From an uncultured Chloroflexia bacterium (GTDB lineage: Bacteria; Chloroflexota; Anaerolineae; B4-G1; SLSP01): a DNA stretch of 40,000 bases. Positions 9,018 to 40,000 of the stretch are shown here, in pieces. How positions within the stretch are numbered: position 1 is the stretch's first letter; each line of letters starts with the position of its first letter. Location of the stretch: positions 280,068-320,067 of the forward strand of contig CAVVUS010000011.1 of NCBI GenBank assembly GCA_963751345.1, given 5' to 3'. The notes beneath the pieces are model-generated. The model saw only the letters and a program-made list of their open reading frames with translations. It searched no databases and was not told the origin of the DNA. The position numbers were made by a program, and so were the translations under genes.

Positions 9018-9050
9018 CAGCGCACCGGGGGGAGCCTTGATCGAGCAGCG

Positions 9051-10244: not shown

Positions 10245-10322
10245 GTTCCCCCCGCAAGACCCAAGTGGAAGTGGGTATCTCTGGCTGTGCCTGCTTCAGA
10301 AGTGGAAGGGAGAGGTGGAATT

Positions 10323-10808: not shown

Positions 10809-10874
10809 GGAAACAGCGTCGAGTTCCGCTGTACCGACGGGTTCGGCACCGGTGGCGGAAGGAGGCGAGGCCCT

Positions 10875-12939: not shown

Positions 12940-12940
12940 A

Positions 12941-14449: not shown

Positions 14450-14480
14450 GGGGTAGTGTGAGAAGACGAGGAATGGAGAT

Positions 14481-14795: not shown

Positions 14796-14843
14796 CGTGG
14801 ACGACGTCGACCGAGTAGAGGATGAAAGAGGAGTTAGGTTGAT

Positions 14844-18370: not shown

Positions 18371-21300
18371 GGTAGCCGTAGTAGGCATCGGGCACGAGCT
18401 GCGCGGCGATGATGTTGCCGGCGTTGCCGTAGCGCGGACCCTGAAAGAAGCCGCAGATGCCGACGAGAGTCTGTTGGTGATCGATGCCGGCCCGGCACCG
18501 GAGAACCAGATCGGGCCACTGATCCGGTTCAAGCCGGATGTCATCGTGTTCGTGGACGCGGCACAGATGGGTGAGGCCCCGGGAACGGTGCGTTGGGTGT
18601 CGTGGGAAGATGCGGATGGGATGGGCGCCTCGACGCATACGCTGTCGCCCGCGGTCCTGGCCCAGTTCCTGTTGGCGAGTTGGGTTGTGAGGTGCTCTTG
18701 CTTGGCATTCAGCCGACAAGCATTGCGCTCGGGGCCCCGCTCTCCCCGGCGGTCGCCGAGGCCGTGAACAGAAGATCGCGCGTTCTCTCCTGAGGGCCGA
18801 AGAGCCCGAGCTTGCTCGGGCTCCCTTCGTGAGATCAACCTTTTTCCCCTACGGATGGAGGATCGTGGCGGCCCGATCAGCCTGATCCTCAGCCCCAAGA
18901 TGCTCTTTGCAGCATTCACCAGCACCTGGCGTCCGGTGTCCGTCATCGTCGAAGGCGGGCCGCTGAACCCCCAGAGCAGGTATTGGCTGCTCTTGCTGAT
19001 GATCGTGTAGTGATTCGCGTTGTCGCTCTGACGACCCACTGCCGCCACCCCGGAGACCGATGACGGGTAGTAGACGGCGACGAAGCCGCTGTCGGAGTTG
19101 TAAAGCGTGACAAGGCGACTTCCGGGTACGCTGATCGCGTTCGGCGTGGTCCAGAGGTCGTTGCTGGGATCCACCGCGTAGACTTGGCGTGCGCCGGACC
19201 CCACCCAGCTCTGCCCCCAGCCGATGTCGGTCACACCGATCTTGTCGAAGAACGACGCCCCTCCCGCACCGAGACCTAGTACGGAGCCATTGGCGTCCTT
19301 GATGCGGTTCGCCTGATTCCCCGCGCCATCTCCCCAGTTGCCCCCGCTTCCCGTATCCGCACCGATGAGTACCAGCCGGTACTTGCTGAAGTCGGTCGAC
19401 ATCACCGCACTCTGGTTGATCACGTCGACCTGGTAGTCATTGGCTTCCAGCAACGACTTGAACTGATTCGCTGCCGTAGCGTCTCCGGCGTAGATGTAGA
19501 TCGCGCTTGTCTTGCAGTCCACTGTAAAGCTGGCCTGATCTGACGTGACGTCGTTAGGGCTGAGCACGTGAAGCTGCTGCCAGTACGTGCCGTCGCCGCC
19601 AATGCTCCAGGTAGTGTTGACCGACTGTGTGCCCGGACTGGCGAAGTCGATCGTTTCCTCGGCCACGTCAGCGCCATCACTTCGCTCCCACTTGTAGGTC
19701 ACCGTGCCCGACCCAATTACCGTGATCTGCGCGGAGAAGGTGAAGTCTTTGGAGCAGATGCCGGTATAGGAGGTCGGATCGACGCTGATCTGAATGTTCG
19801 TGACCTCGAAGGGCGGCACCGGCGTCGGTGGGATGGTCGCGCTGCCCAGACCGGTGACATCGACATTGCAGTCGGCCAATAGACTCTGGGCGACCCAGCC
19901 TTCCTCGCCGCTGCTGACCACCTGGACCTTGACCCACGTGCCGTCCGGATAACCCACGGAGCTATAGGCGAGAGGCTTCAGTTGGGTCCCCGAGGGTAGC
20001 GTGTCGATGGGCGGATCGTAGACGGTGCCCGGTCCGCTTCGCAGATGAATTTCGCTGCCTCCCGCGAGGCATTGCTGGGCCTGTACGTGGACCTGAACCT
20101 GCGCCTGGACCTCGCCGCCCGGCCCCTTGGCAACCAGCGTGTAGACCGTGTCAGTTGCCGGGACAGGGACGTCCCGGCTGCCGCTCAGCCCCACCGGGCC
20201 GAGGCCGGGCTCGATCGTCACCGTGTCGGCCTTGTTGGTCTCCCACGCAAGCTGGATCGTTGAAGAACTGCCCTCGACCGCAGTCGTGGGGGTGACGGTG
20301 AAGCTGGTCACCTCAGGGGCATCGGGCGCCGGTGTCGCCACGATCACCTGCTGGGCTTTCTGGATGGTACGCCCCTGGTTGGAGGCGATCAAGGTATACG
20401 TCTGCGTCTGCTGTGGCGTGTCTTTGCGCTCGCCGCTGGCATCGACCGTCCCAAAAGGTTGCAGCGTGACGCTGTCGGCATTGGTCACACTCCATCGAAT
20501 CGTGACCTCCTGGCCGAGCGTGACGTCCGTAGGGAAGACCGACCACTCCACGATGACCGGATCTGTGACGACGTTGACGACCTGGATGTTGAGCGTCTCC
20601 TTCGTGGATCGGAGCATATTCGAGGCCACGATGGTGACGGTCGTATTCTCCGGGAAGCCATCCGGGAAGGTATACTCACCCACGGAGGGATCCACCTGGA
20701 CCCCGAATGGGCGGAGCTCGATGTTTCGGGCGTTGGTGACTTGCCATCGCACGGTGACAGGCTGTCCGGCCTCGGCGTTCTGCGGAACGACCTCGGCCAA
20801 AGTGATGACGGGCGGACGCGTGAGAAGCAGCGCTAGAGCCGCGCAGGCAACCAACAACAATGCCATGGCGACGGTCATCACCCACGTCGGGATGATGGCG
20901 TTGCTTACCATCTCGCCGCCGTGCTGCTGGGCGTCGCCCTGGGAGGGCGCCACCTGCACGGCGAAGGAGTGCGTCTTCGCGCCGCCGATCAGGCGTCGTT
21001 TGACCGGACGCGCGACGAGATCCGCCGACCCTGTCTGGCCCTGCGGCACGCGGATTTGGGCCTGTGGCGGCTCGAACGCCAGTTCGTTAGCGCGGTCAGA
21101 CCCCGTGATCGAATAGGTGTCGGGGAAGTTACTGTCGTTCTGTACCGTGACCCGGGTGGGTGAGCCCACCTTGACCTTCTGAGGCTGCATGGAGCTGCTA
21201 AACTGCTGGAAGGGCGCCACCGTGAGCGCGGCATTGACCTCCACGTACTGGGATGGCATGTCGCGGCTGAACACGCGGATGCTCATGCCGTAACGGCCCG

Positions 21301-26050: not shown

Positions 26051-26069
26051 GGGTGCCTTCTTTCGTCTA

Positions 26070-26148
26070 TGACGATTGACGGGTGACGATTGACCGGATC
26101 GACGCGAAACTTCCGGATCTGGATCACTCGTCACTCGTTAATCGTCAC
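26070..26148. repeat. Direct and inverted repeats in the gp25/baseplate-J intergenic region
   Basis: TGACGATTGAC occurs at 26070-26080 and 26084-26094. GTGACGATT (26083-26091) is the reverse complement of AATCGTCAC (26140-26148). TCACTCG is tandemly repeated at 26124-26137. CCGGATC occurs at 26094-26100 and 26113-26119. Confidence 0.6.
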
Positions 26149-26165
26149 GTGTTTCTCGTCATCCC

Positions 26166-26561
26166 TTATTCCTCGGGTATCAAGTAGAACGGATAGACCA
26201 GGCTCCGTTGATCGTGCGTCGCCTTGATCTCATATCGAATGCCGATGACCAGGGTGTTGTCCGCCTCGGCGTCCTGCTGCACGTCCACCTGGATCACGCG
26301 GATGCGCGGCTCCCACATTCCCAGCGCTTCCTCCACGTAGCGCCGCGCCCGCGCCGCCGTGTGGCTGTTGTTGGGGGCGAAGACCAACTCGTGCAGCCGG
26401 CATCCGAAGGTCGGCCGCATCACGCGCTCGCCCGGCGAAGTCGACAGGATGATGTAGATGGCCTGATCGATCTCGCTGCGCTCGTGCGTCAGCGCGATCC
26501 CGCCCTGCGCGCCGATCTGCGGTGGGAAGACCCACCCACGACCTACGATGTCATCCGGCAT
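26166..26561 (-). CDS. GPW/gp25-family baseplate wedge protein (Afp9-like)
   Basis: ..GRGWVFPPQIG..GGIALTHERSEIDQAIYIILSTSPGERVMRPTFGCRLHELVFAPNN.. is the canonical GPW_gp25 pattern; 131 aa. Confidence 0.9.
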   Translation of the reverse strand: MPDDIVGRGWVFPPQIGAQGGIALTHERSEIDQAIYIILSTSPGERVMRPTFGCRLHELVFAPNNSHTAARARRYVEEALGMWEPRIRVIQVDVQQDAEADNTLVIGIRYEIKATHDQRSLVYPFYLIPEE

Positions 26562-26564
26562 AGG

Positions 26565-26966
26565 CTATCCCCCAATCATGACCGTACCCGCCGCGACAAT
26601 CTGGGCGGCCATGTTCGGCACAGGATCGGCGCACGTCTGCGCCTGATCGCCGGCCCTTGCCGCAGGCTTGCCGTTGATCATCACCGTGGCGCTGCCCCGC
26701 ATGATCGTGCCCCGGTTCAGAGGTGGGATCTGGAACACCGTGCCGGGCGGGGTGGGCAGGTGCGGCGGCGTGTTCGTCGCCGTGCTTCCGACCGTGGCGG
26801 CGGGCATCCCCGCGATCTTCACGGTCGGGCTCAGGTTCCCGTCGATGATGCCCGCGAAGGGATGGGGCAGGGGCGTCGGCACCGGCCCGCCCGGAGACGG
26901 CACCATCACGATGTGCATATCCACCGCCGTGATCTGATCTCCCTGCTTTGCTGCTGGCTGTCCCAT
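26565..26966 (-). CDS. PAAR-domain spike-tip protein (Afp10-like)
   Basis: MGQPAAKQGDQITAVDMHIV..PHPFAGIIDGNLSPTVKIAGMPAATVGS..MINGKPAARAGDQAQTC.. shows PAAR-like repeats. AAGGAG lies upstream of the ATG at 26966. Confidence 0.85.
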   Translation of the reverse strand: MGQPAAKQGDQITAVDMHIVMVPSPGGPVPTPLPHPFAGIIDGNLSPTVKIAGMPAATVGSTATNTPPHLPTPPGTVFQIPPLNRGTIMRGSATVMINGKPAARAGDQAQTCADPVPNMAAQIVAAGTVMIGG

Positions 26967-27020
26967 CGTCCGTACTCCTTACTCCGACTCCTGCCGAAGA
27001 CGTGTCACCGGCACATCTCT

Positions 27021-27055
27021 ATCGCTGAAAGCTGTCAGCTATCAGCTAATAGCTA
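27021..27055. repeat. Five tandem heptamers (NNAGCTN) at and after the vgrG stop codon
   Basis: ATCGCTG AAAGCTG TCAGCTA TCAGCTA ATAGCTA, read directly on the + strand. The segment is locally AT-rich and lies in the 86-nt vgrG-PAAR spacer. Confidence 0.6.
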
Positions 27056-28738: not shown

Positions 28739-28881
28739 TACGACAAGACCTCCGGAGACGTGTTTCCGAGGACGGGCCACCATCCATCCTCTCCGACAGC
28801 TGGTCCCACGATGATGCGCCATCGGGGGTGGCCCACCGACCTGCCTCTACGACGACGTGGCGTCAGCATCGTGTCACGACC

Positions 28882-29559
28882 TCAAATTGCCGGGATGATG
28901 AGCTGCTGACCCGCGCGCAGTGCCAGCGGGTCGGTCAGATGGTTATAGTCGGCGATGACGCGCCAGCGGGTGGCGTCGCCGTAGACCTCGTGGGCGATGG
29001 TGTCGAGCCGGTCGCCGGCGATGACGCGCCAGACGCGCTCGATATCCCCGCCGCCCGACGTCGGATTCTGGCTGGGATAGTCCTCCAGATCCTTGTGCTG
29101 TGTGAACGTCACGTCTACCTTGGCGCGTACCGGTGTGCCATCAGGTTTGAAGAGCGTGAACTTCTGGGTCATGTTGGTGATGACGGCCACAAAGCGGAAG
29201 ACACCCCACTCGAATGCGACCTCGGGTGGGGGCACCTTGCGATTCCGGTTGCCCTCGCGCCGGGTCTTGGACTCCATGAGCTTCCAGAGCCGATTGGTCT
29301 GCAGGCTGACGTCCTCGTCGCTCTCGTAGGTGTCGAAGACCAGGCTCAGCTTCAGTGTCTGGGGCCCGGCCTTCTCGAACTCGAAGCTCGGGACATCCGA
29401 GCGGTTCTGCCGCTCCTCTTTGTATGAGTTCCGCTTGGTCACGGTGTACTCGAAGGGGTTGAACATACAGCCCACCGAGACACCGCCACCCTTCTCCTCC
29501 CCGGACTCGTCGACCTCGTAGATGCGGGCAGCCTGCAGGCTACTGCGTGTTTCGGGCAT
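28882..29559 (-). CDS. Tube-initiator/baseplate hub protein with C-terminal LysM domain (Afp7-like)
   Basis: The N-terminal ..CMFNPFEYTVTK..LSLVFDTYE.. is tube-fold-like. The C-terminal WRVIAGDRLDTIAHEVYGDATRWRVIADYNHLTDPLALRAGQQLIIP is LysM. The ATG overlaps the upstream stop (TGATG at 29557-29561). Confidence 0.85.
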   Translation of the reverse strand: MPETRSSLQAARIYEVDESGEEKGGGVSVGCMFNPFEYTVTKRNSYKEERQNRSDVPSFEFEKAGPQTLKLSLVFDTYESDEDVSLQTNRLWKLMESKTRREGNRNRKVPPPEVAFEWGVFRFVAVITNMTQKFTLFKPDGTPVRAKVDVTFTQHKDLEDYPSQNPTSGGGDIERVWRVIAGDRLDTIAHEVYGDATRWRVIADYNHLTDPLALRAGQQLIIPAI

Positions 29560-31511
29560 CAGGACCTCCTCTGCGAGCGCTCACGCTCCATCGCCAGACG
29601 GTGCTTGACCTCGTCGTAGACCCTGCGGGCAAGCTCGTCGAGATCGACGGCGGGTGACGCCTCTTCTGGATTCTGTGGCTCCGCTCCGAGGTCCGCCGGC
29701 GGCTCAGCCGCCGATTCGGTCGCGTCCGGCACAGGCGCTTCCTGCGGCGCCGGGAGGGATTCCTCCTCCGCCGGTCGCTCGGCCACGATCCGTTGGATGA
29801 CCGCGGGCCCGCGTGCTGGGGCCGTCGGCACGGTGGTCTGACGGGGCGCCGGGGGCATCTGCGGTTGGGCCTCAGATGCTGTCTGGACACCGCGTGTCTG
29901 CCCACGCGCCTCTGCGTTCTGGGGCACCGGTTCCCCAATCAGGCTCCAGAGATCCGCGGGCAGAGGACCGATGGGCGTCTCGATGAACGGGATCTCCGCT
30001 CCAGGCCGCAGCTCAGCGCCCTCGCTCCGGGCTTCCGTAGCTTCGGCGGCGGGCGGTGCCGTGCGACGGACTTGGCGCTGGGCCGGACGCTCGGCGGGTG
30101 CAGGCCGAGGCCCGCGCGGTGCGAGGGTCTCGATGGTGGAGCGGGTGCGCCTGCCTGCCGCTATCTGTGCCAGCATTCTCCCCACGGGCTCGGGTGCGGC
30201 GACGGTCGTGACCGGTACACCGCCCGGCACCTGTCGACCTGCCGATGGGCTTGTGTCCTCGTGGAGGACGACGGGCTCGGCAGTGGTTGGTCCCCGGACC
30301 TCACGCTCGACCGCAGACGCAGTGGAACTCCGACGCGGCCTCGGCGACAGCCCCTGCGGCGTGCGCTCGACGCCCCAGGCCTGCTGTAAGGGGAGCGGCT
30401 GCGTGGGCCTTTCACCGGGCGCGGACTCTGCTTCAGGGACGGTCTCTTCGCGACCCGGCACTGCCTCTGGCGCAGGGGCTTCGTCCGGACGCAGGGCCTC
30501 AACACTCATCGGTTCGAAGGCCCCGGCAGGCTCTGGTGGGCGCAGGTCAACGCGAGCGGCTTGCCGCACCACCGGCGAAGGTGCTCTCCGCTCGTCCGGC
30601 GCCGTCGGCCCGGATTGGGTGGCCCTTTCGTGAGACTCCTCTCCCATCGGTTGCCGCGCCTGCTCCGGCGCAGTCACGTCCGAACGAGCTGCTGTGTCGA
30701 CGCGCGCAGGCGCCATAGGCGCGCGCTGAACCGTTGGCATGCCGCCCGCGTCTTCGACCCGGCTGTCTTCCCGTTCGCTGATGTTGGCTGGACGGGGGGA
30801 CCCCGGTGCTTGTGCTCTCGATCGCTCGCGGCCCGGCCCCTCCGTGGGGCTATCCTGCGTTTCGGCTGCGCGCGTCTGCGGGACGCGTGAGATCGCGGCC
30901 TTGGCCGTACCCTCTGCTAGGTTTCCCGATCCGCGGCCTATCGCCTCCCGGGGCGAGCTTGCGAGGGGCAGAGAGGATGCCTCGGACTCCACGTTCGTCC
31001 CGGCTTCCGACCCGACCGTGGGCTGCGCCTCTTTCCCCTGGTGCCGCTGGAAGATCGTCTGGAGCCGGTGCCATACGGTGTCCGTGATCGGCGCGTCAGA
31101 CCCGGCTGGCGCGTCTCCCGGTCCCTCGGCGGCCGCAACTGCGGCCTGCACTGCCGCGCGGCGCGCCACGGTAGGTTGGGCAGGGCGTGAGGTGGGAGCA
31201 CGTTCCGGCATCTCGGGTGACAGGCCCGCGCCAGCGACATCCCGCAGCGGTGGTCCGGGCAGCGTTGGGGAGACCGTCGGCCTGGTTTCGGCCGGCATTG
31301 CGCTGGCGACCGGCGTTGGCTCGCCGACGATCCGCGCCGATGGGCTGACAGGCTCACCGTCCCTCACCGGTACCGCGACGACCGTCTCCGTTGGCCTGCG
31401 CGGGATCTCGACCGGCGTCGAGGCCGCCCTGAAGAGTGTGGCGACCGACCGGTGGCGCATCACGCGGCGCACCAGTAAATCACTCAATCCCAGCGTCGGT
31501 CTGAATGCCAT
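29559..31511 (-). CDS. Pro/Ala/Glu/Arg-rich low-complexity protein in the tape-measure position (Afp14-like candidate)
   Basis: About 650-aa ORF between tube-2 and the LysM hub, translationally coupled at its 3' end. No recognisable catalytic motif. C-terminal helix ..LDELARRVYDEVKHRLAMERERSQRRS. ATG at 31511 follows GGGGAG. Assignment is by synteny only. Confidence 0.5.
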   Translation of the reverse strand: MAFRPTLGLSDLLVRRVMRHRSVATLFRAASTPVEIPRRPTETVVAVPVRDGEPVSPSARIVGEPTPVASAMPAETRPTVSPTLPGPPLRDVAGAGLSPEMPERAPTSRPAQPTVARRAAVQAAVAAAEGPGDAPAGSDAPITDTVWHRLQTIFQRHQGKEAQPTVGSEAGTNVESEASSLPLASSPREAIGRGSGNLAEGTAKAAISRVPQTRAAETQDSPTEGPGRERSRAQAPGSPRPANISEREDSRVEDAGGMPTVQRAPMAPARVDTAARSDVTAPEQARQPMGEESHERATQSGPTAPDERRAPSPVVRQAARVDLRPPEPAGAFEPMSVEALRPDEAPAPEAVPGREETVPEAESAPGERPTQPLPLQQAWGVERTPQGLSPRPRRSSTASAVEREVRGPTTAEPVVLHEDTSPSAGRQVPGGVPVTTVAAPEPVGRMLAQIAAGRRTRSTIETLAPRGPRPAPAERPAQRQVRRTAPPAAEATEARSEGAELRPGAEIPFIETPIGPLPADLWSLIGEPVPQNAEARGQTRGVQTASEAQPQMPPAPRQTTVPTAPARGPAVIQRIVAERPAEEESLPAPQEAPVPDATESAAEPPADLGAEPQNPEEASPAVDLDELARRVYDEVKHRLAMERERSQRRS

Positions 31512-31591
31512 CAGACGTCTATCTCCCCTTGCTACGCATAGCAACCACTATCTAGGCCGGCGGACGCTCGTGCCACTGCTTGGCCCGTCGC

Positions 31592-32007
31592 CTATTCATA
31601 CGACACGGTGACCTCGCCGCATGCCATCTCCAGTGTCTCTATCGCGACGCTGTTGGCGTCGGATTGGAGCTGCGGACCCTTCCAGCTCGTGGGGAAGGCA
31701 TCATTGACGTGCCAGATCATCACGGGCTCTTTCTCCTCGTTTAGGAGCGTGATCGTGAGGGTCTTCCGCGTCGGCGGGCCTTGCATGCACGCCATGTACC
31801 AGTCCACCAGCGCCCTCCTGCCGACCCCATTCTTCAGGCTCAACTTGGCCGCTTTGCGCTGGCCCGGCAGTTGATGCACGTAGGTGTTGAGCCCCCCTCC
31901 TTCACGGACTCGACATCCCACTCAACCACCGGTAGGACCGTCTCCGTGAACGCAGCCTGGGGCTCGCCGTCCACTGCCACGATGAAGCGAAATGACGGTA
32001 TTGGCAA
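31592..32007 (-). CDS. Second tube-family protein (T4 gp19-like, Afp5-like), frameshifted at a G6 run in this assembly
   Basis: Upstream frame from TTG 32007: (M)PIPSFRFIVAVDGEPQAAFTETVLPVVEWDVESVKEGG. Downstream frame (ORF 31592..31921): ..GGLNTYVHQLPGQRKAAKLSLKNGVG..AFPTSWKGPQLQSDANSVAIETLEMACGEVTV. The switch is at the C6 run 31892-31897 (+ strand); one more G on the coding strand restores a 138-aa tube protein. Confidence 0.8.
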
Positions 32008-32012
32008 AGCCT

Positions 32013-32216
32013 CTATCCTCTCGATCGTTCCCGTTCGCCGGCGATGTCTTGCTTCAGCAGCGCGTAGACGCGATCTGCCACTTGGCGGACCAACTCGTCA
32101 GTCATGGGCACCCGCGACGCCCCAGGCGTAACGGCGCGCTGCGGCGAAGGCCGATCGCTGACCGGTGGCGCAACAGCACGTACCTCCTGCTGGTCTTCCA
32201 CATCGCCCTCTGCCAT
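32013..32216 (-). CDS. Small hypothetical protein (67 aa) with a C-terminal RVY..ERERS helix motif
   Basis: The ORF lies in the same frame as the upstream chaperone-like gene, separated from it by a single TAG plus three codons. GGAGA lies about 13 nt upstream of its ATG. The C-terminus ADRVYALLKQDIAGERERS resembles the C-terminus of the tape-measure-like protein. Confidence 0.4.
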   Translation of the reverse strand: MAEGDVEDQQEVRAVAPPVSDRPSPQRAVTPGASRVPMTDELVRQVADRVYALLKQDIAGERERSRG

Positions 32217-32225
32217 CCCTGCCCC

Positions 32226-32621
32226 CTATCTCCTCGTCCCCTGCTCACCTTGCGTTCCATCGCCCTCGTCCACCCGCGCAGGTGCTACCTTGAACTGGAG
32301 CTCCGAACTGCAGTGCGGACAGACCGTTCGCACGACCATGCCGTCGTAGCTGTTCAGCCGTAGGTAGACGTCCTCCAGGTAGGCGAGGTCGGCAGCATAG
32401 AGCTGTTCCACGATCGCGGGCGTCACGTGCGGCAGCGTTCCGAGCTGCGTAATCACCCGGCTGAGCAAGATGATGGGTAGATAGGCCTCGTTTGCCTGCA
32501 CCCGCGGATGGGCCACGGACTCGATCTCATCCAAGGCCGTGGCCATCCGCATCCGCCCAACGCGGTGGGTCTGCCCGTCACCGTTGCTGTAGCCATAAGG
32601 CAGGGTGAACTCGAAGTCCAT
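32226..32621 (-). CDS. Tail assembly chaperone-like protein (P2 gpE-like position and pattern)
   Basis: 131 aa between tube and tape-measure-like genes: MDFEFTLPYGYSNGDGQTHRVGRMRMATALDEIE..LPIILLSRVITQLGTLPHVTPAIVEQLYAADLAYLEDVYLRLN resembles gpE-type chaperones in pattern. One CPHC motif near the C-terminus. Not verified by HMM. Confidence 0.45.
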   Translation of the reverse strand: MDFEFTLPYGYSNGDGQTHRVGRMRMATALDEIESVAHPRVQANEAYLPIILLSRVITQLGTLPHVTPAIVEQLYAADLAYLEDVYLRLNSYDGMVVRTVCPHCSSELQFKVAPARVDEGDGTQGEQGTRR

Positions 32622-32625
32622 AGGT

Positions 32626-33072
32626 TCAGATCTCGACGCGGCTTATGTACTCGTGCGCGATGGTGAGTTCCTCTACCCCGATCTCGTTGCTATCGGACTT
32701 GGGCTGCGGCCCGGTCACCTTGACCGGCCAGGCGCGTCTGAACTCCCAGCGGGCCACGGGGTTCAGCTCCTCGTCGAACATCGTGATGGAGCCGTCGTGC
32801 CGGGCTTCCTCGACCCGCCCATCCTCCACCATCTTGCGCCAGTCCCAGATGTCCATGCTGCTGGTGATCCCGCGTTTCAGCGTGATGTTCTCCCACTTGA
32901 GCCGTCCCGGTATTTTCATGACCACTTCCTGGCCCTGGTCGGTGACGACTTTGTGCTCGATCACCTCGTGCTCGGATCCAAGTCCGCTGCACTCCGTGAA
33001 GTAGCCCTTCACGACTTCCTGAACTTCAACGGCAAAGTGAAACCCTACAAGGGGATCCTCGCGGTCAGGCAT
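32626..33072 (-). CDS. Tail tube protein (T4 gp19 family, Afp1-like)
   Basis: MPDREDPLVGFHFAVEVQEVVKGYFTECSGLGSEHEVIEHK..GRLKWENITLKRGITSS..WDWRK.. is typical of CIS inner tube proteins. AAAGGAG lies upstream. Confidence 0.9.
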   Translation of the reverse strand: MPDREDPLVGFHFAVEVQEVVKGYFTECSGLGSEHEVIEHKVVTDQGQEVVMKIPGRLKWENITLKRGITSSMDIWDWRKMVEDGRVEEARHDGSITMFDEELNPVARWEFRRAWPVKVTGPQPKSDSNEIGVEELTIAHEYISRVEI

Positions 33073-33100
33073 TGCATTCTCCTTTCATTCCTCTCATTCC

Positions 33101-34630
33101 TCAGGCTTCGGCGTTGGCGCCGGCCCATTGGCTGATGCGGAAGATCACGAACTCGGCCGGCTTCACGGGAGCCATGCCAACCTCGATGATCAGTTGGCCC
33201 AGGTCCCGGATTTCCGGTGGGTTGAGCTCGTCATCGCACTTGACGTAGAAGGCTTCGTCCGGCGTGCTTCCGAAAAGCGCTCCGCTGAGCCATACGGTGC
33301 GGAGGAACGAGATGACGTCCCGGCGCACGCGTGCCCAAAGCATCCGGTCGTTCGGCTCGAAGACGACCCACTGCAGCCCGACGTCGATCGATGCCTCGGC
33401 CATGATGAAGAGCCGCCTGACGTTGATGTAACGCCAGGAGCCGTCGCTGCTCAGCGTACGACCGCCCCACACGCGGATGCCGCGGCCGGGGAAGGTTCGG
33501 ATGCAGTTCACGCCGATCGGGTTGAGGCTATCCTGTTCGCCCTTGCTGAGACGGAGCTCCAGGTCGATGGCCCCGCGGACGACCTCGTTCGCAGGTGCCT
33601 TGTGCACGCCGCGATCGGCGTCGGTGCGGTTGTAGATTCCTGCCATATGCCCGCTTGGCGGAAGGAGTTTGCTGGTGCTCCCGCCGCCGCTCAAGTCGGC
33701 CGCACGAATCCAGGGATAGTAGAGCGCCGCGTACGAGGTGTCGAAGTTGACGTACTCCCGCCATTCCTGAGCCTGCTGGGCGTTGAGGCCCGGCGGCGTG
33801 TCGAGAATGGCAAAACGGTACTTGAGCGCCTCGCAGTGGGCGATCATCGCCGTCTGCACCATCTTCACCCGCTCCCTGGCCGCGGCTGATCCATCGTATC
33901 CGGCCATCACGTCGGGCGCGACCAGGATGCGGACCTCATCGATGGCTTCGAGACCCGCGATCCCCGTGCGTTCGGCGGCATCGCCGGCGAAGTCGTCGAC
34001 GGTCAGCGGCGGGATGCCGCCCCCCGTCAGCTCATACGTGCCCTCGGTGGGTGTGGCGGTGGCGGTGCCCACGTCGGTGAGCTCGACGGTAGAGAAGGTG
34101 GCATCGCCGACGAAGTTCGCCTCACCCTTCTTCATCGTGAGACCGGCCTTCGTCTCATCGCCCACGGTCACGGAGAAGGTATCCTCCTCGCCGGCCTTGA
34201 TGGTCACGCTGAGATTGGACGGCCCCGTCGTCTTGGCGACGACCTTGAAAGCGTTACCGCGTCCCTTCGCCGGCACGGTCGCCGCTGCCGATTCGGCCTC
34301 GGCGCCGCCCTCCCTGAGCGCGCGGACGCTGACGACGTAGCAACTGCCGCCACCGTTGGTAAAGTAGCCATAGACGGCGTCAGGCAGATAGGCCCCGGCG
34401 ATGAAATCGCCGAAGATACTGACATACTGGGTCCAACTCGTCACAAGCGTGGGTTGGTTGAGCACCGACTGAATTGGCACGCGCTCACCCGTGGCGGGAT
34501 CCACCTGCTTCCTACTGGCTTCTGCCGTGATGCCCACAAAAGCCGTCATCGACGTGCCTGCGGCTTCAATGGGCTTTGTACCCCGATCGACCTCTTCGAT
34601 ATACACACCGGGAGATTTGTACTCAGGCAT
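33101..34630 (-). CDS. Contractile tail sheath protein (Afp2/Cis2-like)
   Basis: The MPEYKSPGVYIEEVD.. N-terminus and ..ALYYPWI.., ..GVNCIRTFPGRGIRVWGGRTL.. are hallmark phage tail sheath motifs. 509 aa; AAAGGAG lies upstream. Confidence 0.95.
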   Translation of the reverse strand: MPEYKSPGVYIEEVDRGTKPIEAAGTSMTAFVGITAEASRKQVDPATGERVPIQSVLNQPTLVTSWTQYVSIFGDFIAGAYLPDAVYGYFTNGGGSCYVVSVRALREGGAEAESAAATVPAKGRGNAFKVVAKTTGPSNLSVTIKAGEEDTFSVTVGDETKAGLTMKKGEANFVGDATFSTVELTDVGTATATPTEGTYELTGGGIPPLTVDDFAGDAAERTGIAGLEAIDEVRILVAPDVMAGYDGSAAARERVKMVQTAMIAHCEALKYRFAILDTPPGLNAQQAQEWREYVNFDTSYAALYYPWIRAADLSGGGSTSKLLPPSGHMAGIYNRTDADRGVHKAPANEVVRGAIDLELRLSKGEQDSLNPIGVNCIRTFPGRGIRVWGGRTLSSDGSWRYINVRRLFIMAEASIDVGLQWVVFEPNDRMLWARVRRDVISFLRTVWLSGALFGSTPDEAFYVKCDDELNPPEIRDLGQLIIEVGMAPVKPAEFVIFRISQWAGANAEA

Positions 34631-34682
34631 CGCTGTGACACTCCTTTCTTGGTGTAGCCCTCATGCTCTTAGGTTTCCCTGC

Positions 34683-35538
34683 TCAGACCTCAATGTCGTA
34701 GTCTCCGTCTTCGGCCGGAATCTCGATCTCTTTCTGTCGTGGTTTCTCCTCTGTGGCCCACGCAACCAACGTGTAGCGTCCGGGGGGCACACTTCCCAGG
34801 ACGAACCGTCCACGGTCATCGGTTGTTGCCATATAGCCGGTTCCCTTGATCGCCACCTCTACACCTGATTGCGGGGTCTTGTCCGTGCCGCTGCGCACGA
34901 CGCCTGCGATGAGTACCAGGTCGGTGCGTCTCGCATCGGGCACGAGCCCGATCTCGTAGGGCAGGTTCTGCGCCTGACCCAGGCGCAGAATCCGCGTGCG
35001 CACCAGCGGACCCGTGATGACCTCCCAGGGATCCAGGGCCAGCGTGACGACGTAGGGCACGCTGGGGCGCATCTCATTATCCAGGACGTTCCACAGGTCC
35101 GACGGATCGGTCAGCACGTCGTGCTGGGCCAGTTTGGCCTGGATGTCGAAGGGTGGATTCTGCAGCGCGCCGATCAGCCGGTCGGCGGGAAGGATGGGGA
35201 AGCGGAAGAGGGTCAGCATCAGTGCGCGTGAGCAGCCGGTGTTCGTCCTCCGGGTCGGCGGCCCAGGTCGACAGCATATAGGAGCAGTCGACCCGCATCG
35301 GCGAACGCTTGAGCTTTGCGAGCTCCTGCTGGCCTCCGTTGTTCAGCCGTTCCCACTGGTGCTGCCGCAGGACGTTGTTCTCGCGGACGTCGTAAAGGAA
35401 GACGTTGACCGTCGGCTTCGATAGGCGCGAGCTCCACTCGCGCGCGGGCTGGTCGAAGCTGATGTCGATCTCCCCGTTCTTCACCGGAAGCTCGGCGATC
35501 AAGAGCTGCCGTAGGGTCTCGTCCAAATCTGCTATCAT
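34683..35538 (-). CDS. DUF4255 tail terminator/cap protein (Afp16-like) with C-terminal carboxypeptidase-regulatory-like beta-sandwich; frameshifted in this assembly
   Basis: N-terminal part (ORF 35077..35538): MIADLDETLRQLLIAELPVKNGEIDISFDQP..VNVFLYDVRENN..MRVDCSYMLSTWAADPEDEHRLL. Continuation in the frame of ORF 34683..35219: ALMLTLFRFPILPADRL..LWNVLDNEMRPSVPYVVTLALDP.., then VVRSGTDKTPQSGVEVAIKGTGYMATTDDRGRFVLGSVPPGRYTL. The switch is near 35219-35235 (one extra nucleotide). Confidence 0.8.
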
Positions 35539-35555
35539 CAGGTCCTATCCAATTC

Positions 35556-37712
35556 CTAGCGTCTCTCCATCGACAAGCCCATTGACTGCGAGAGCACACT
35601 GCGCATCCCCTGTACCGTCGTGCGCATCTCCTGCAGCTCCTCCATGGTCTGTTGTACCACCGGATTCGCGGCGCCCTGCCCACCGTAGGCGCTGCCCGGC
35701 GTTCTCTGCGAGGTGATGAAGTAGATGCGTTGGGGAGAGGCGCGGTAGACGACCCCGCCCGTCCGCCCCCAATTGCCCAACTGGAAGTCCTGGTAAGGTT
35801 GATAATAGGTTACGCCGCCCTCGCGCGACCCCGTTTCCGCGTTACGCGTGCCCTCCACCGCGCCACGTGCTTCGGTCGCGTGCCGCCCCGCTTCCATCTC
35901 GGTCCGCCCCATCCCCATCGTGGTGTCGATCTGCACGACGAGGATGTCCACGTCGCCCAACAGGCCGGCGATGACCGTGTACCCCTGCCCGCCTCCCGGC
36001 CCTCCCGGGCGGTCGGCGGCCGCCCCGAGGTTGGTCAGCGTCGTGCGCAGGGAATCGCGTGCCTGCTGGTACTCCCTCAGTCGCTCCTCAAGCGTCTGCA
36101 TCGCGCTAAACAGGGCTGTCTGCGCCTGGCGCACGCCCGACACATTGGCGGTAATGGCGGCTTGCCGCGACTGTGCGTTCGCCTGGCTGATCTGGGACTC
36201 AATCTGGTTGGTCTGCTCCCGGTACCACTCCTGGCTAATCGCGGTCGCAATCGTGTCAGGGCTGAGCGCGCCCAGCGCTTGGCTGCCCAAGTTGGTCGCT
36301 GCTTCGCCGACGGCGCTGGTTGCGGCCTCTGTCGCCGCAGTGCCGAGTCCCGCCGCGCCGCCGAGGGCCGAGAGCACCTGCAGCCCCGTCGACAGGCGGC
36401 TCTGCATTGTGGAGACCTTCGCTTTGATCTGCCGCTGCTGCGCCGCCAAGTCGGGGTCCTCCTCCCTCGGTATGATGCCCGCGTTGAGGGTGCTCAGTGC
36501 GGAGTTCAGGCCGTGTACGGCTTGGCTCGCCTCACGCTGTGCGCGGGTGAAATTGTTCCCTGCCCCCATCAGCCTGTCATGGGCCTCCTGGGCTTGGGCG
36601 CGGATGACGGTGGCGTCTCCGCGCATGCCTGCGGCCGACTCCGCCGCGCTCCCCGCGCCGGTGGCCGCGCCGACGACCTCCTCGGCACGGAAAGACGCGC
36701 TCTCGTTGGGGGTTACGACGCCCATCGACTGCAGATGCAGCATCCGCCCCGAGACGCGGCCGAAGTCCAGTCGGAGCTGCTGGACCTGCTCCTGGAAAGT
36801 GCCCAGCGTCCGTCCCTGTTCTCCCACCGTCACGAGATAATCCGAGAGCTTCGCGATCGCCTCCTCGTTGGCGGAGATCTGATCCCCCGAGATCGTGCCC
36901 TGGCGTCCACCCTCCTGCATGTTGGGGCGGTATCCCTCGATCGTCGTCATCATACGCCGGGCGCCGCTCGCGTCCTGGACGTTATTGACCTGCATCACGG
37001 GCGGCGGCGCTGTCTGCAACTGCTCGCGCTGCTCCTGCTCCCCGGCGCTGGCCATCTCGTCCAGGTCCTCGGCGACATCGCGCTGGACGCTGGTGCGGCC
37101 TATGCCCGGTGTCCGGTTGCGAATACCCGCCATCGTTCCCATCGTCGCGGCTATCTCTGCCGCGTGTTCCTGCGAATTCCCAGCCGGCCCTACCGTCAGT
37201 TGGCTGCTCGGAACCGCGGACTGCTGCTGCACCACGTGGGCCAACTCGTGGCCGATCAGACGTTCGTCGGAGGCGCTAGCGTCGTGGCTGAGGAAAACGT
37301 CGCTGCCGAGGGTGAAGGCGCGGGCGCTGACGCGCCGGTTCAGTTCGTCGGCCTCGGAGTCGTCGTGAAGCCGCACGTCGCCCAACGGTGATCCGTAGGC
37401 GGCCTCCCACCTGTCCCGCTGCACGCCGTCCAGGGGGCGACCGCTGCCCAGGTTGCTGTAGATCTGGCTTGCCAGCCGGTTGCTGATAGCTCCCCCGGCC
37501 AATCCCACCTCGGCCTCGGGCCACGCCCCGTCCTCGCCGCCAAGCGCACGGGCGATGTGCTGGACGTGGGCGTTGCCGACCTGATGCTGTAGCTGACGCA
37601 GGGGAACGCCGGTGACGCCGTCCCCGAACCCCTGTGGGCCCTCCTGGGATGCCTGTCGGGTGCCGGTCGACGTCGCGTCGCGTTTCTCGTCTGTGTGTTC
37701 CTTGTCAGCCAT
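35556..37712 (-). CDS. DUF4157 (eCIS-associated HExxH) domain protein with a long helical C-terminal region; candidate cargo/effector
   Basis: ..LGSGRPLDGVQRDRWEAAYGSPLGDVRLHDDSEADELNRRVSARAFTLGSDVFL..LIGHELAHVVQQ is the DUF4157 pattern, including HELAH. ATG at 37712 follows GAGGAG. The ORF track start at 38093 overlaps the ATPase gene. Confidence 0.8.
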   Translation of the reverse strand: MADKEHTDEKRDATSTGTRQASQEGPQGFGDGVTGVPLRQLQHQVGNAHVQHIARALGGEDGAWPEAEVGLAGGAISNRLASQIYSNLGSGRPLDGVQRDRWEAAYGSPLGDVRLHDDSEADELNRRVSARAFTLGSDVFLSHDASASDERLIGHELAHVVQQQSAVPSSQLTVGPAGNSQEHAAEIAATMGTMAGIRNRTPGIGRTSVQRDVAEDLDEMASAGEQEQREQLQTAPPPVMQVNNVQDASGARRMMTTIEGYRPNMQEGGRQGTISGDQISANEEAIAKLSDYLVTVGEQGRTLGTFQEQVQQLRLDFGRVSGRMLHLQSMGVVTPNESASFRAEEVVGAATGAGSAAESAAGMRGDATVIRAQAQEAHDRLMGAGNNFTRAQREASQAVHGLNSALSTLNAGIIPREEDPDLAAQQRQIKAKVSTMQSRLSTGLQVLSALGGAAGLGTAATEAATSAVGEAATNLGSQALGALSPDTIATAISQEWYREQTNQIESQISQANAQSRQAAITANVSGVRQAQTALFSAMQTLEERLREYQQARDSLRTTLTNLGAAADRPGGPGGGQGYTVIAGLLGDVDILVVQIDTTMGMGRTEMEAGRHATEARGAVEGTRNAETGSREGGVTYYQPYQDFQLGNWGRTGGVVYRASPQRIYFITSQRTPGSAYGGQGAANPVVQQTMEELQEMRTTVQGMRSVLSQSMGLSMERR

Positions 37713-37800
37713 GTATCGGATCTCCTCTGATTCCAGACTCTTGGGGTTTTCCTCTCGGGAAGCGCTGTCTCGACGAGATAACCCCAAAGGTCTTTCCCGA

Positions 37801-40000
37801 CTATGGTTCCTCTCGATCGACGGCCAGATCCTCCTCGCGCACCAGGCGCCCCATCTTCTGCAGTTCGCGCCGGGTACCGTGGAGCAGATGCCCCATTGTG
37901 ACCGCCCCACCGTCTGCGGCGGCGAGGTACGCCGCGCTGACGATGACGTTGCGGATATTGCCCCCCGCCAGCCGGAACCGTTCCGCAAGAAAGCCGAAAT
38001 CGATCTCCTGGCTTCGCGGTACGTTCGGAGGGAAGAGCGTGGTCCAGATTCGCAAGCGATCCTCCGCTTCCGGGAAGGGGAAGGTGACGGCAAACTGCAG
38101 CCGCCGGGTGAAGGCCTCGTCCAGGTTGCCCCGCAGGTTCGTGGCCAGGATCGTCACGCCGTCGTAAGCCTCCATGCGTTGCAGGAGATAGCTGATCTCA
38201 ATATTGGCGTAGCGATCGTGGGAATCGCGCACTTCAGAGCGCTTGCCGAAGAGGGCGTCTGCCTCGTCAAAGAAGAGGATCGCGTTGCTCTGCTCTGCCT
38301 CCTGGAAGATGCGCTCGATGTTCTTTTCCGTCTCACCGATGTACTTGCTGACAATCGTCGACAGATCGATGCGATAGAGATCCAGCCCCAGCCCGCCCGC
38401 TATGATCTCCGCGGCCATGGTCTTGCCTGTGCCCGGCGGCCCCGAGAAGAGGACCGTCACGCCGCGGCTCGACGCCAGCTTGTCTCCGACGCCCCAGACG
38501 TCGAGCACTTGTGAGCGCCCGCGCACCGTATCGATGATCTCCTGCAGCAGCACCTTCTGATCCTCCGGCAGCACGATGTCGTCCCAACGATATCTTGGCG
38601 TGATCTTGTGGGCTAGAGTGGCGAGATGTGCATTCGAGTGCGCACGTGCGGCGGCGAAGAGAGCTTCTCGCGACAGCGCCACGCCCCGACGCACGGCCCG
38701 ATCCTTTGCCGTCGCCACCGCGTCGCGGATCTGGCCACTGGTCAGCATGAACTGGCCTGCCAGCGCGTCGACCGCACCAGCATCACCCTCGATGCCATCG
38801 TCCTCAATACCGTCGGGCCCGATGAAGTGCTGCCACAGCCGCAGGCGTTGCTCGTACGGCGGGACAGGGAAGGCCACCTCGATCACGATCCGCTGCTCCG
38901 GGGTCCCGCCCTCGGTGGGGGAGAACGCCGCTGCCCTGCCGCCCTTGGGTTGCCAGAGCGCCTTCCCGGCGACGATGGCTGGGCCAGGAAAGGCGTAGAG
39001 CTCACGCAGCAGCACCGGAGGTGTGTTACCCTCGACCAGACACGCGTCCCAGCCGGCCAACATCGGGAGAGCCTCCATCAGCCGGGCATCCCGCAGCGCC
39101 AGGCGGATCGCACGGCGGGCACCGATCGGTCCGCGCATATCGGAGCCATAGCCATCGCGGCCAAGAATGCCCGCAACGTCGAGCACCAGCAACGGGCGAT
39201 GGGTCGCCGCAGCCAGCAGGCGCGCCGCCACGTGCTGACCGTCGTGATCCTGCCCATGAAAGAGGTAGAGTGGGGCGGCAACGCCGGTCACGAGCTCTCC
39301 CGCGAGGGCAGCGTCGACGAGCGGATCTAGCCCGCTCGCGGGGTCGGGATCGAGAGTGATGTATCCTGCCAGGTCCGAGTGGGGCCGGTAACCACCCAGC
39401 AGCCACACCAACAGACCGTCATCTGCGGTCAAGACACGGGCCAGGAGCGGCACGGGACCGGCCTCCGCGGGTTGTCTGAGCTCAAGGAGATGGTTCCGAA
39501 AGAGCGGGGCATCGTCCTCAAAGTGGGCCAGCATGGCGAGCCGGCCGATCCCGCCTTCTGTCAACAGGTCCAGCACCATGTTCACCGTCGGTCGCTTCTT
39601 TGTGACGTCGTCCTGCAAGTAGCTGTAGATGCGCTCGTAGCGCAGATCAATCGAGGGTGCCAGGCAGATGAGCAGGACATCCAGCTCAAATTGGCTCAGG
39701 CCGAAAGCGGTGCGAAGGCGTTCCAGGGCCGGCGTGGTGCCTTGCTCGGGTCGCCCCGTCGAGAATGGCCTCCGCTTGGTGCTCGACCAGAGCGCTCTGC
39801 CGCTCCAGCGATGCCTCGATCTCTTCCGGCAGCGAGACCGTCTGCCCCCAGTTCGAGCTGAGAGGGCGAGCCAGCAGGGCTTCGGCCTCCTCGTCGGATA
39901 CGTACAGGCCACGGAAGGCGTCGTTGGGATCCTGGCCGGCCAACCTCCATCTCGCAACGGCCCGCTGCAGACGTGTGCGCACCCTCTGCAGCTCGACTTG
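37801..40000 (-). CDS. AAA+ ATPase (Afp15/Cis15-like), 5' end beyond the window, frameshifted at a G4 run in this assembly
   Basis: Walker A VLFSGPPGTGKTMAAE, Walker B ILFFDEADALFGKR, and ..TILATNL.. The N-terminal part is in the frame of ORF 39686..39982 (..WRLAGQDPNDAFRGLYVSDEEAEALLARP..AEAILDG), open to position 40000. It continues as RPEQGTTPALERLRTAFGLSQFELDVLLICLAPSID in the frame of ORF 37801..39957. The switch is at the C4 run 39754-39757 (+ strand). Confidence 0.85.
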   Translation of the reverse strand, partial: KSSCRGCAHVCSGPLRDGGWPARIPTTPSVACTYPTRRPKPCWLALSARTGGRRSRCRKRSRHRWSGRALWSSTKRRPFSTGRPEQGTTPALERLRTAFGLSQFELDVLLICLAPSIDLRYERIYSYLQDDVTKKRPTVNMVLDLLTEGGIGRLAMLAHFEDDAPLFRNHLLELRQPAEAGPVPLLARVLTADDGLLVWLLGGYRPHSDLAGYITLDPDPASGLDPLVDAALAGELVTGVAAPLYLFHGQDHDGQHVAARLLAAATHRPLLVLDVAGILGRDGYGSDMRGPIGARRAIRLALRDARLMEALPMLAGWDACLVEGNTPPVLLRELYAFPGPAIVAGKALWQPKGGRAAAFSPTEGGTPEQRIVIEVAFPVPPYEQRLRLWQHFIGPDGIEDDGIEGDAGAVDALAGQFMLTSGQIRDAVATAKDRAVRRGVALSREALFAAARAHSNAHLATLAHKITPRYRWDDIVLPEDQKVLLQEIIDTVRGRSQVLDVWGVGDKLASSRGVTVLFSGPPGTGKTMAAEIIAGGLGLDLYRIDLSTIVSKYIGETEKNIERIFQEAEQSNAILFFDEADALFGKRSEVRDSHDRYANIEISYLLQRMEAYDGVTILATNLRGNLDEAFTRRLQFAVTFPFPEAEDRLRIWTTLFPPNVPRSQEIDFGFLAERFRLAGGNIRNVIVSAAYLAAADGGAVTMGHLLHGTRRELQKMGRLVREEDLAVDREEP

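Follow-up and report, generated by a model that had tools for sequence, protein, structure and literature searches.

The window analysed here is a stretch of 40,000 nucleotides with a G+C content of ~63%, taken from contig CAVVUS010000011.1 of an uncultured Chloroflexota bacterium (assembly GCA_963751345.1, positions 280,068 to 320,067). From ~18.84 kb to the window end, its minus strand carries the gene cluster of a contractile injection system (CIS), in which a baseplate wedge protein, Cis12, is fused to a forkhead-associated (FHA) domain and is followed directly by a membrane receptor Ser/Thr kinase. The sheath protein has thousands of close homologs, the named ones stemming from metagenome-assembled genomes (MAGs) of Anaerolineae, Anaerolineales and Promineifilaceae; the host is an Anaerolineae (Chloroflexota) bacterium. 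Long open reading frames (ORFs) of the minus strand from ~23 kb to the window end were scanned with Pfam at the curated (gathering) cut-offs. Every core assignment of the original prediction, which had placed the genes on one strand in the order given below, is supported above these cut-offs.

37807-40000, minus strand: Cis15/Afp15-like AAA+ ATPase with an N-terminal winged-helix domain (Pfam WHD 3.9e-34, AAA 1.4e-28)
35559-37712, minus strand: DUF4157/eCIS_core protein, 717 amino acids (aa) (Pfam eCIS_core 2.9e-22)
34683-35538, minus strand: cap/terminator protein Cis16/Afp16 (DUF4255) with a C-terminal CarboxypepD_reg domain (Pfam Pvc16_N 8e-24; split ORF)
33101-34630, minus strand: single sheath protein Cis2, 509 aa (Pfam Phage_sheath_1 and Phage_sheath_1C)
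32626-33072, minus strand: inner tube protein, Cis1a/Afp1-like (Pfam Phage_T4_gp19 1.3e-38)
32226-32621, minus strand: conserved 131-aa protein at the position of a tail-assembly chaperone (conserved in 54 loci)
32013-32216, minus strand: 67-aa ORF (94% identity in a tblastn search with the ORF of relative L001; no family match)
31592-31980, minus strand: second tube protein, Cis1b/Afp5-like tube initiator (Pfam Phage_T4_gp19 5.5e-25 on the C-terminal ORF)
29559-31544, minus strand: tape-measure-like Pro/Ala/Glu-rich protein of up to 661 aa at the Cis14 position (assigned by position and composition only)
28882-29559, minus strand: LysM tube-initiator/baseplate hub Cis7/Afp7 (Pfam CIS_tube 6.2e-31, LysM 4.5e-05)
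27053-28822, minus strand: VgrG-like spike Cis8, one contiguous ORF (Pfam Phage_base_V 8e-28 and Phage_GPD; NCBIfam VgrG_rel 5.6e-112)
26565-26966, minus strand: PAAR spike tip Cis10 (Pfam PAAR_motif 5.6e-13)
26166-26561, minus strand: gp25-like sheath initiator Cis9 (Pfam GPW_gp25 2.3e-28)
24053-26053, minus strand: baseplate wedge Cis11 (Pfam Baseplate_J 5.2e-14)
23080-24053, minus strand: FHA-Cis12 fusion (Pfam FHA 4.5e-19 and Tail_P2_I 4.4e-18 on two window ORFs)
18840-23020, 3' end approximate, minus strand: membrane receptor Ser/Thr kinase, ~1,390 aa (Pfam Pkinase 1.8e-47, FHA 7.8e-15 and SH3_3; NCBIfam PknB-type)
22010-22033, minus strand: Thr334 motif within the kinase, residues 330-337 (conservation in 54 sequences)

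All members of the core set of extracellular contractile injection systems (eCIS), namely Phage_sheath_1, gp19, VgrG, gp25 and Baseplate_J, exceeded the Pfam gathering scores. DUF4255, the Afp15-type ATPase and DUF4157 are regarded as eCIS-specific markers (Geller 2021), and all three were matched by Pfam, in agreement with their earlier use as eCIS/CIS markers. The genes are tightly packed, with the stop of Cis11 overlapping the start of FHA-Cis12 and a gap of 59 nt before the kinase. In none of the long ORFs of the window did Pfam detect head, portal, terminase, TssJLM or ClpV families, which agrees with the predicted absence of capsid, portal, terminase, TssM/J/L and ClpV genes. The two-part sheath TssB/TssC and TssK were likewise not matched in the long ORFs of the window; only one sheath protein, of the Phage_sheath_1 type, is encoded. 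The claim that a fibre gene is missing also held, as none was found in the window, no ORF lies between Cis12 and the kinase, and none of the conserved cluster genes resembles a fibre or receptor-binding protein.

Three relatives were compared closely with the window. L001 is a 913-kb metagenome contig with a 99% identical sheath and 97.1% identical DNA over window positions 23078-40000, L005 is a Microflora Danica long-read MAG with 95.5% identity to the window, and L002 has a sheath identity of 84%. Furthermore, the GTDB species representatives were scanned with a Cis11 alignment. This revealed 80 loci, L005 among them and nearly all from Chloroflexota (Anaerolineae, Ardenticatenaceae, Promineifilaceae and Caldilinea). 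Synteny was counted in the 56 species-level loci in which 6 kb or more of sequence follow downstream of Cis11.

The lineage of the system was assessed from the best matches against all chains in the PDB. The sheath matched those of the Streptomyces systems CIS-Sc/Sv (S. coelicolor and S. venezuelae) best, with 498 bits to 8BKY/9GTP and 489 bits to 8BL4/9GTS, followed by the haloarchaeal CIS sheath 9EZM with 348 bits. Scores were ~180 bits or less for Pvc2, Afp2/3, All3325 of the thylakoid-anchored CIS (tCIS) and AlgoCIS, 53 bits for pyocin and ~30 bits for T4. Of these structures, 8BKY represents Cis2, the sheath of S. coelicolor, and 9EZM comes from a membrane-bound haloarchaeal CIS. Cis11 matched CIS-Sc 9gtp_1K over its full length with 482 bits, the next matches being AlgoCIS (36 bits) and Afp11 (25 bits). 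The best PDB match of the Cis12 part is CIS-Sc 9gtp_E (190 aa, no FHA) and that of the cap is CIS-Sc Cis16 9gts_0A (225 aa), while the DUF4255 protein 9qgn_A reached 33 bits.

Subtype IId of the eCIS is characterised by one afp11, one contiguous afp8, the presence of afp10 and mostly undetected afp12/13 (Chen 2019). The window corresponds to this description with a single Baseplate_J ORF, a joint ORF for GPD and base_V, a PAAR gene and no fibre-like ORF. In S. coelicolor, sco4259 encodes the ATPase, sco4253 the sheath and sco4245 gp25, followed by BW2, BW3 and the membrane protein gene sco4242, and IId loci have also been described in filamentous Cyanobacteria and Chloroflexi (Vladimirov 2023). 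For the genes compared, the order in the window agrees with sco4259...sco4253...sco4245-BW2-BW3-sco4242. Gene order, IId traits and the best matches of sheath, Cis11, Cis12 and cap thus point in the same direction, which bears out the predicted Streptomyces-type rather than Afp/PVC arrangement. We assign the locus to the Streptomyces-type lineage, eCIS subtype IId, as a fibre-less CIS in Anaerolineae.

In common with CIS-Sc (PDB 8BKY, 8BL4, 9GTP, 9GTS), the window system has one sheath and one Cis11, an uninterrupted VgrG, a PAAR protein and no fibre, and in both the wedge genes are immediately followed by the gene of a bitopic membrane protein. In Streptomyces this protein is CisA (SCO4242), which is required for CIS-Sc firing; cisA occurs in 75 of 120 IId genomes. 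According to its published description, CisA has no kinase or FHA domain and consists of a Cys-rich region, a transmembrane helix and a carbohydrate-binding-like domain of ~150 aa. Its position is occupied here, in a different host phylum, by the ~1,390-aa Hanks kinase with an FHA domain. The Streptomyces Cis12 and Cis16 also differ from the proteins of the window, as the former comprises 190 aa without FHA and the latter lacks CarboxypepD_reg. In the window, this Ig-like CarboxypepD_reg domain of the cap is encoded at 34683-34990 (minus strand), and it is kept in relatives.

The Afp/PVC systems (subtype Ia) share the gp19 tube, sheath, LysM hub, VgrG, gp25, PAAR, Baseplate_J, DUF4255 cap and AAA ATPase with the window. 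They differ in having three sheath paralogs and the Afp13 fibre, and the similarity to them is low (~180 bits for the sheath, 25 bits for Afp11). The tape measure, ATPase and cap genes of Afp/PVC lie at the operon's 3' end. The window does not show the traits of subtype I, since it has a single sheath, no fibre and a Cis12 of the small P2 gpI-type rather than the gp6/gp7 type.

FHA and gpI-like proteins had been listed as two genes in the original prediction. Both domains were found, but they form one fused gene in all relatives, with 323 aa in L001 and a single gene also in L005. The protein consists of an N-terminal FHA domain, a disordered Pro-rich linker of ~60 aa and a C-terminal Tail_P2_I/Cis12 wedge domain. 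The best 120 homologs of the L001 protein all carry PF00498 together with PF09684. In the 56 synteny loci, gpI was detectable in 45, and in 40 FHA and gpI were encoded in one ORF. An alignment of 33 diverse fusions showed that the phosphothreonine-binding residues G30-R31, S45-R46, H48, S65 and N67-G68 are invariant. The AlphaFold2 (AF2) model of FHA-Cis12 comprises an FHA domain at residues 1-103 with a predicted local distance difference test score (pLDDT) of 96-98, a disordered linker at residues 105-165 and the Cis12 domain; a Foldseek search with this model returned FHA domains and the CIS-Sc baseplate 9gtp. The Cis12 of the Chloroflexota branch carries an FHA domain on a long disordered tether.

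The kinase begins with a Hanks kinase domain (residues 1-272), followed by a linker, an FHA domain (372-455), two immunoglobulin (Ig)-like domains, a transmembrane helix (~712-734) and an ectodomain of ~650 aa with Ig-like repeats and SH3b. A homologous kinase is encoded on the same strand in 50 of the 56 loci, in 40 of them within 1.2 kb of gpI, and 49 of 53 homologs have a single transmembrane helix at residues 670-790. The first ~700 residues up to this helix are conserved, including the catalytic and FHA motifs, and the ectodomain is variable. Two or three tandem kinase paralogs, which have the cytoplasmic half in common and differ in their ectodomains, were found in 18 loci (L014, L018, L020, L028, L046, L049, L057, L059-L062, L066-L069, L071, L073 and L081). 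The identities of kinase and Cis11 to the window proteins are correlated (rho 0.50, p 9e-5). Within the linker between kinase and FHA domain, which is otherwise unconserved around this site, Thr334 in the motif VSL[MVI]TQ[YL]Q (VSLMTQYQ in the window; SLxTQ motif) is kept in 52 of 54 homologs. This threonine is a candidate for both an autophosphorylation site and an FHA-docking site.

We also considered the Ig-like module of the kinase as a CIS-specific domain that might be related to Sco4256. CIS specificity was rejected, as an exhaustive HMMER search returned 4,340 representatives, including kinase-less proteins with Ig-like domains, a transmembrane helix and PD40. The module also occurs in a large family with N-terminal Ig-like repeats and PD40 beta-propeller repeats and no kinase (P0259, P0266, P0269, P0287, P0290 and P0302).

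The DUF4157 protein of the window has a disordered N-terminal leader with a LRQLQHQVGNAHVQ motif, the DUF4157 domain with HExxH and a variable C-terminal part of ~430 aa. The N-terminal/DUF4157 part is conserved in other loci, and the C-terminal part occurs only in close relatives. The cargo proteins Cgo1/2 of AlgoCIS have a disordered N-terminus, a DUF4157 domain and a variable C-terminus, and their loading depends on the N-terminus and an AAA+ protein. Because the architecture of the window protein matches that of Cgo1/2, it is probably a cargo or effector protein. Several related loci contain inserted proteins with a common leader, …LQxQxxGNxxVQR…, of the kind that just precedes DUF4157 in the window protein. 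Clustering 361 ORFs against each other showed that this leader family, with 30 ORFs in 17 loci, is the sole recurrent extra family in the 80 loci. These variable arrays look like a polymorphic cargo or toxin set. They contain one to four highly variable leader proteins (for instance L019 12098-16094, L042 12231-16275, L053 7391-14292 and L022 12059-14675), lie between Cis11 and FHA-Cis12 or after the kinase and show the leader …RPLRQQALLxLQKQxGN…/LQRxxGNxxVQR.

We consider a phosphothreonine-mediated, signal-dependent docking or triggering of a cytoplasmic IId CIS at the membrane to be the best explanation for this locus, and we place somewhat more trust than doubt in it. The particle would assemble free in the cytoplasm, as it does in Streptomyces and Roseiflexus, while the ectodomain of the kinase would sense a cue from the envelope or the extracellular space. 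The kinase would then autophosphorylate, most likely on the near-invariant threonine of the SLxTQ motif, and the six tethered FHA domains of the baseplate, in effect intracellular 'tail fibres', could bind the phosphothreonine. Binding would dock the baseplate on the cytoplasmic membrane and license contraction. Firing through the producer's own membrane would release DUF4157-type cargo and kill or lyse the cell, which may amount to regulated cell death in the filament. The narrower proposal that the Cis12-borne FHA domains act as intracellular 'tail fibres' with the phosphorylated SLxTQ of the cognate kinase as their receptor, so that a signal leads to docking and firing, is put forward only tentatively, and we are inclined to doubt it. 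The intracellular or membrane-anchored mode of action, which the original prediction had called plausible, is suggested more strongly by the architecture of the kinase and the FHA fusion.

The logic of such a mechanism would parallel CisA-dependent firing as well as the PpkA-Fha/TssL switch of type VI secretion systems (T6SS). In the threonine-phosphorylation pathway of the T6SS (PpkA, Fha1/TagH, PppA), a membrane Hanks kinase and an FHA protein are likewise encoded in the cluster of a contractile machine. There, the machine is cleared to assemble or fire by contact between phosphothreonine and FHA at the membrane, and in some species it is a membrane component that carries the phosphate (TssL in Agrobacterium). 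Both FHA domains of the window gave a weak match to the TagH model of NCBIfam. Unlike in the T6SS, the FHA domain is here joined to a structural protein of the baseplate wedge, and a further FHA domain belongs to the kinase itself; PppA-type phosphatase, TagQRST and TagF genes were not found here, and the machine of the window has no TssB/C, TssJLM or ClpV.

The Roseiflexus system from the Chloroflexota-Deinococcota CIS clade resembles the window in its Chloroflexota host and its lineage, IId (Gaisin et al. 2026, ISME J, PMC12998442). Its particles were seen free-floating inside the cell by cryo-electron tomography, and no close cisA homolog is present (PMC12998442). It is the only imaged Chloroflexota CIS, and its Deinococcota relatives are cytoplasmic as well (PMC12998442). 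As Roseiflexus lacks cisA, another membrane or firing factor is expected. The hosts of this clade differ from that of the window, being members of the class Chloroflexia and Deinococcota extremophiles rather than Anaerolineae, and the likeness is one of description, not of sequence. The report on this clade mentions neither an FHA domain nor a kinase (PMC12998442).

Several observations weigh against phosphothreonine-dependent docking as we propose it. FHA-bearing Ser/Thr kinases are frequent among Chloroflexota, and the Ig-like module of the kinase belongs to a generic family that is not tied to CIS. A kinase is missing from the nearest 10 kb in six of the 56 loci, and in some loci that do have one, no gpI could be seen within reach. 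Downstream of the kinase, the cargo-leader family was the only one to recur in the 80 loci, and no conserved PP2C-type phosphatase was detected; with none beside the kinase, there is no sign that the switch could be reversed. Both the phosphorylated residue and the ligand of the FHA domain are conjectural, and the residues after Thr334 (Q-Y/L-Q) form no textbook pT+3 motif. Four or five genes of the window are out of frame, which may leave the system without activity in this genome. Second in similarity among the solved sheaths is that of a haloarchaeal system which is bound to the membrane and fires outwards, and the variable DUF4157-leader arrays in related loci are more typical of antagonism than of suicide. 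More generally, the mode of action of such systems is not readable from sequence (Gaisin 2026, PMC12998442), and Anaerolineae CIS are known from genes alone.

An alternative is a membrane-anchored weapon that fires outwards in a T6SS-like manner, with the kinase and FHA-Cis12 holding the baseplate while polymorphic DUF4157-leader toxins pass through the thin envelope into neighbouring cells. The CIS of Halogeometricum borinquense ('archaeal T6SS', 9EZM), whose sheath is the second-best solved match with 348 bits, is fibre-less, acts from the cytoplasmic membrane and mediates contact-dependent antagonism, and S. coelicolor Cis2 is its closest structural homolog. To our knowledge, this system has no link to an FHA domain or a kinase. 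It differs from the window further in its archaeal host and in a baseplate-membrane contact made by other means, and its firing is outward and antagonistic. The cargo genes of related loci, one to four in number and highly variable behind a common N-terminal leader, as in conflict systems, the tandem kinase paralogs with different ectodomains in 18 loci and the outward-firing precedent of the T6SS kinase/FHA pathway would fit such a weapon. However, the closest characterised relatives, Streptomyces and Roseiflexus, produce free cytoplasmic particles that are linked to the death of the producer. Neither a TssJLM-like trans-envelope complex nor obvious immunity genes were seen, and instead of a ClpV-type recycling ATPase the locus encodes an ATPase of the eCIS Afp15 type. 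We regard this alternative as unlikely. As for the direction of firing as such, suicide as in Streptomyces and attack as in the haloarchaeal relative are both possible; the cargo arrays lean towards attack, whereas the nearest characterised relatives lean towards suicide.

The cluster could also be a decaying, non-functional remnant in this genome, in which the frameshifts and the lost kinase stop are real mutations. The gene content is complete, as originally predicted, but the system is not intact as assembled, the frameshifts having been overlooked. The ATPase shows an extra C at position 39748 compared with relatives, and the intact L001 ATPase (748 aa) maps to two frames of the window in tblastn; the start of the gene lies ~16 codons past position 40000. 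In the cap, a 1-nt insertion (extra T) at 35221 divides the Pvc16_N profile between two consecutive ORFs, the first matching positions 2-102 and the second 106-167; the insertion is not found in L001 or L005, and the cap is intact at 284 aa in L001, L002 and L005. The second tube gene has G6 in place of G7 at 31891-31897. G6 is common to L005, while the gene is intact in L001 and most other loci (129-146 aa in L001, L002 and many others). FHA-Cis12 contains a 2-nt insertion at 23634/23640 that is absent from L001 and L005. Finally, the kinase was rightly predicted, with Pkinase confirmed, but its end had been set at 18893; homologs stop 15-20 codons after the '...SILG' at this position. The stop is lost in the window, and the frame remains open to 18053, for ~280 more codons past 18893, antisense to the HycI and ferredoxin genes. 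This tail (18053-18893) is an artefact of the lost stop in high-G+C DNA.

Five disruptions within 21 kb, with the indels in cap and FHA-Cis12 absent from the close relatives L001 and L005, would be in line with decay. Yet the housekeeping gene for a class II fumarase in the same window (2806-4345, plus strand) is also split, into two overlapping ORFs that cover positions 1-99 and 97-312 of the Lyase_1 profile, which suggests indel errors in the assembly. Relatives with long-read-type contig names (L001, L004, L005, L073, L076, L079 and L080) each show private frame breaks in otherwise conserved genes, while short-read assemblies are intact. One of the indels lies in a G-homopolymer, and indels aside, the proteins are 95-100% identical to those of relatives. 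Based on the split fumarase, the private breaks in long-read loci and the homopolymer site, the indels of the window are probably long-read assembly errors rather than signs of decay, and we consider a remnant quite improbable. Programmed frameshifting was considered for the split cap and FHA-Cis12 genes and rejected, since relatives are in frame at both sites.

A classical extracellular CIS, released by lysis and binding its target through the CarboxypepD_reg domain of the cap or an undetected adhesin, would leave the FHA domain and the kinase with a role in regulating assembly or expression in the producer. The eCIS markers DUF4255, DUF4157 and AAA ATPase are present, fibre genes are often unrecognisable by sequence, with many lacking clear homologs (Geller 2021), and some Actinobacteriota loci that were once assumed to be intracellular do carry fibre genes. 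On the other hand, no ORF lies between Cis12 and the kinase, no conserved gene resembles a fibre or receptor-binding protein, and the relatives within the lineage are cytoplasmic. Moreover, an FHA domain on the wedge would serve no purpose outside the cell, since phosphorylation driven by ATP does not take place there. The inserts of 2-6 kb between Cis11 and FHA-Cis12 in some loci were examined as possible fibres and rejected, as their proteins carry the DUF4157-cargo leader. We give this alternative, too, little credence.

Head or fibre genes immediately beyond position 40000, which the original prediction had named as a sign of a prophage or classical eCIS, are not present in the relatives L001 (97%) and L002. 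The ATPase is the first CIS gene in L001, preceded by divergent radical-SAM and Impact_N genes and then a response-regulator (GerE) gene; in L002, it is preceded by the same divergent radical-SAM and Impact_N genes and then by ABC-transporter genes. A prophage tail module or R-type tailocin, which sheath, tube, gp25, J, I, VgrG and the tape-measure-like gene as common parts of myophage tails might suggest, can practically be dismissed, since the locus has three eCIS-specific markers (DUF4255 cap, Afp15-type ATPase and DUF4157), head, portal, terminase, integrase, holin/lysin and fibre genes are found neither in the window nor in the L001/L002 flanks, relatives with 84-99% sheath identity carry the cluster at the same chromosomal place beside radical-SAM and Impact_N, and the pyocin and T4 sheaths score only 53 and ~30 bits.

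The locus is a new member of subtype IId, and the conserved module of FHA-Cis12 and receptor kinase sets the Chloroflexota branch apart. Full-text literature searches for FHA or kinases in connection with eCIS or cytoplasmic CIS returned T6SS work only, and FHA is absent from the key papers on eCIS and cytoplasmic CIS, in which the only kinases named are histidine kinases beside GerE regulators. The literature searched appears to contain no account of the module. The module bears on the membrane recruitment and triggering of cytoplasmic CIS, for which Streptomyces needs CisA. With a phosphothreonine-reading domain on the baseplate and a receptor kinase encoded next to it, this locus and those of at least 50 related species provide a biochemically testable hypothesis. 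If phosphothreonine-dependent docking were true, this would be the first CIS outside the T6SS to be triggered by a phospho-switch, it would explain for Chloroflexota how cytoplasmic CIS without CisA find the membrane, and kinase/FHA control of contractile machines would have arisen outside the T6SS as well. Anaerolineae grow as filaments and abound in soils, sediments and wastewater sludge, and a signal-triggered machine for cell death or attack could matter for the behaviour of their filaments and flocs. If the kinase is linked to the cluster only by chance, what remains is a new but ordinary subtype IId member.

Among the smaller genes of the cluster, the 131-aa ORF had no match in Pfam, NCBIfam or the PDB sequences. 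Its homologs carry the NCBI name 'phage tail assembly protein', and the designation as chaperone-like is based on its position and these names. The AF2 model of this protein reached a pLDDT of 83, and Foldseek returned nothing significant, the best-shaped match being a weak one to YqbN 3klu (TM-score 0.44-0.48, probability 0.2). The tape-measure-like protein had no Pfam or NCBIfam match; its C-terminal part is conserved in 33 loci. Its gene is one ORF in the window, L005 and L002 and is broken by an extra A in L001. The 67-aa ORF is conserved in other loci in its C-terminal part. By eye, its last ~30 residues (RVYALLKQGIASERERS) look similar to the end of the tape-measure-like protein (RVYDEVKHRLAMERERS; 29559-29640, minus strand), and the motif common to both may mark proteins that attach to one common site in the tube or hub.

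The response-regulator gene upstream of the cluster in L001 (1-456, minus strand; Response_reg and GerE, LuxR-type) lies ~4 kb upstream of the ATPase. GerE regulators adjoin a quarter of eCIS loci (Geller 2021).

On the other side of the cluster, Pfam hits on long ORFs show that window positions 1-18.8 kb contain ordinary metabolism genes. tRNA and Rfam scans of the window gave no match. This part includes the gene of an ABC-F protein, a glucose-6-phosphate dehydrogenase gene at 1279-2805 and, at 6567-10244 (plus strand), a gene for phosphoketolase (XFP) followed directly by one for acetate kinase, a gene pair of the phosphoketolase pathway. Convergent with the kinase gene, a cluster similar to those of group-4 [NiFe]-hydrogenases (Mbh- or Hyf-like) extends over 10157-18767 (plus strand). 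It encodes NuoJ-, NuoL/M- (two), NuoB-, fused NuoC/D- (NiFeSe_Hases), NuoH- and NuoI-like subunits together with the HycI maturation protease.

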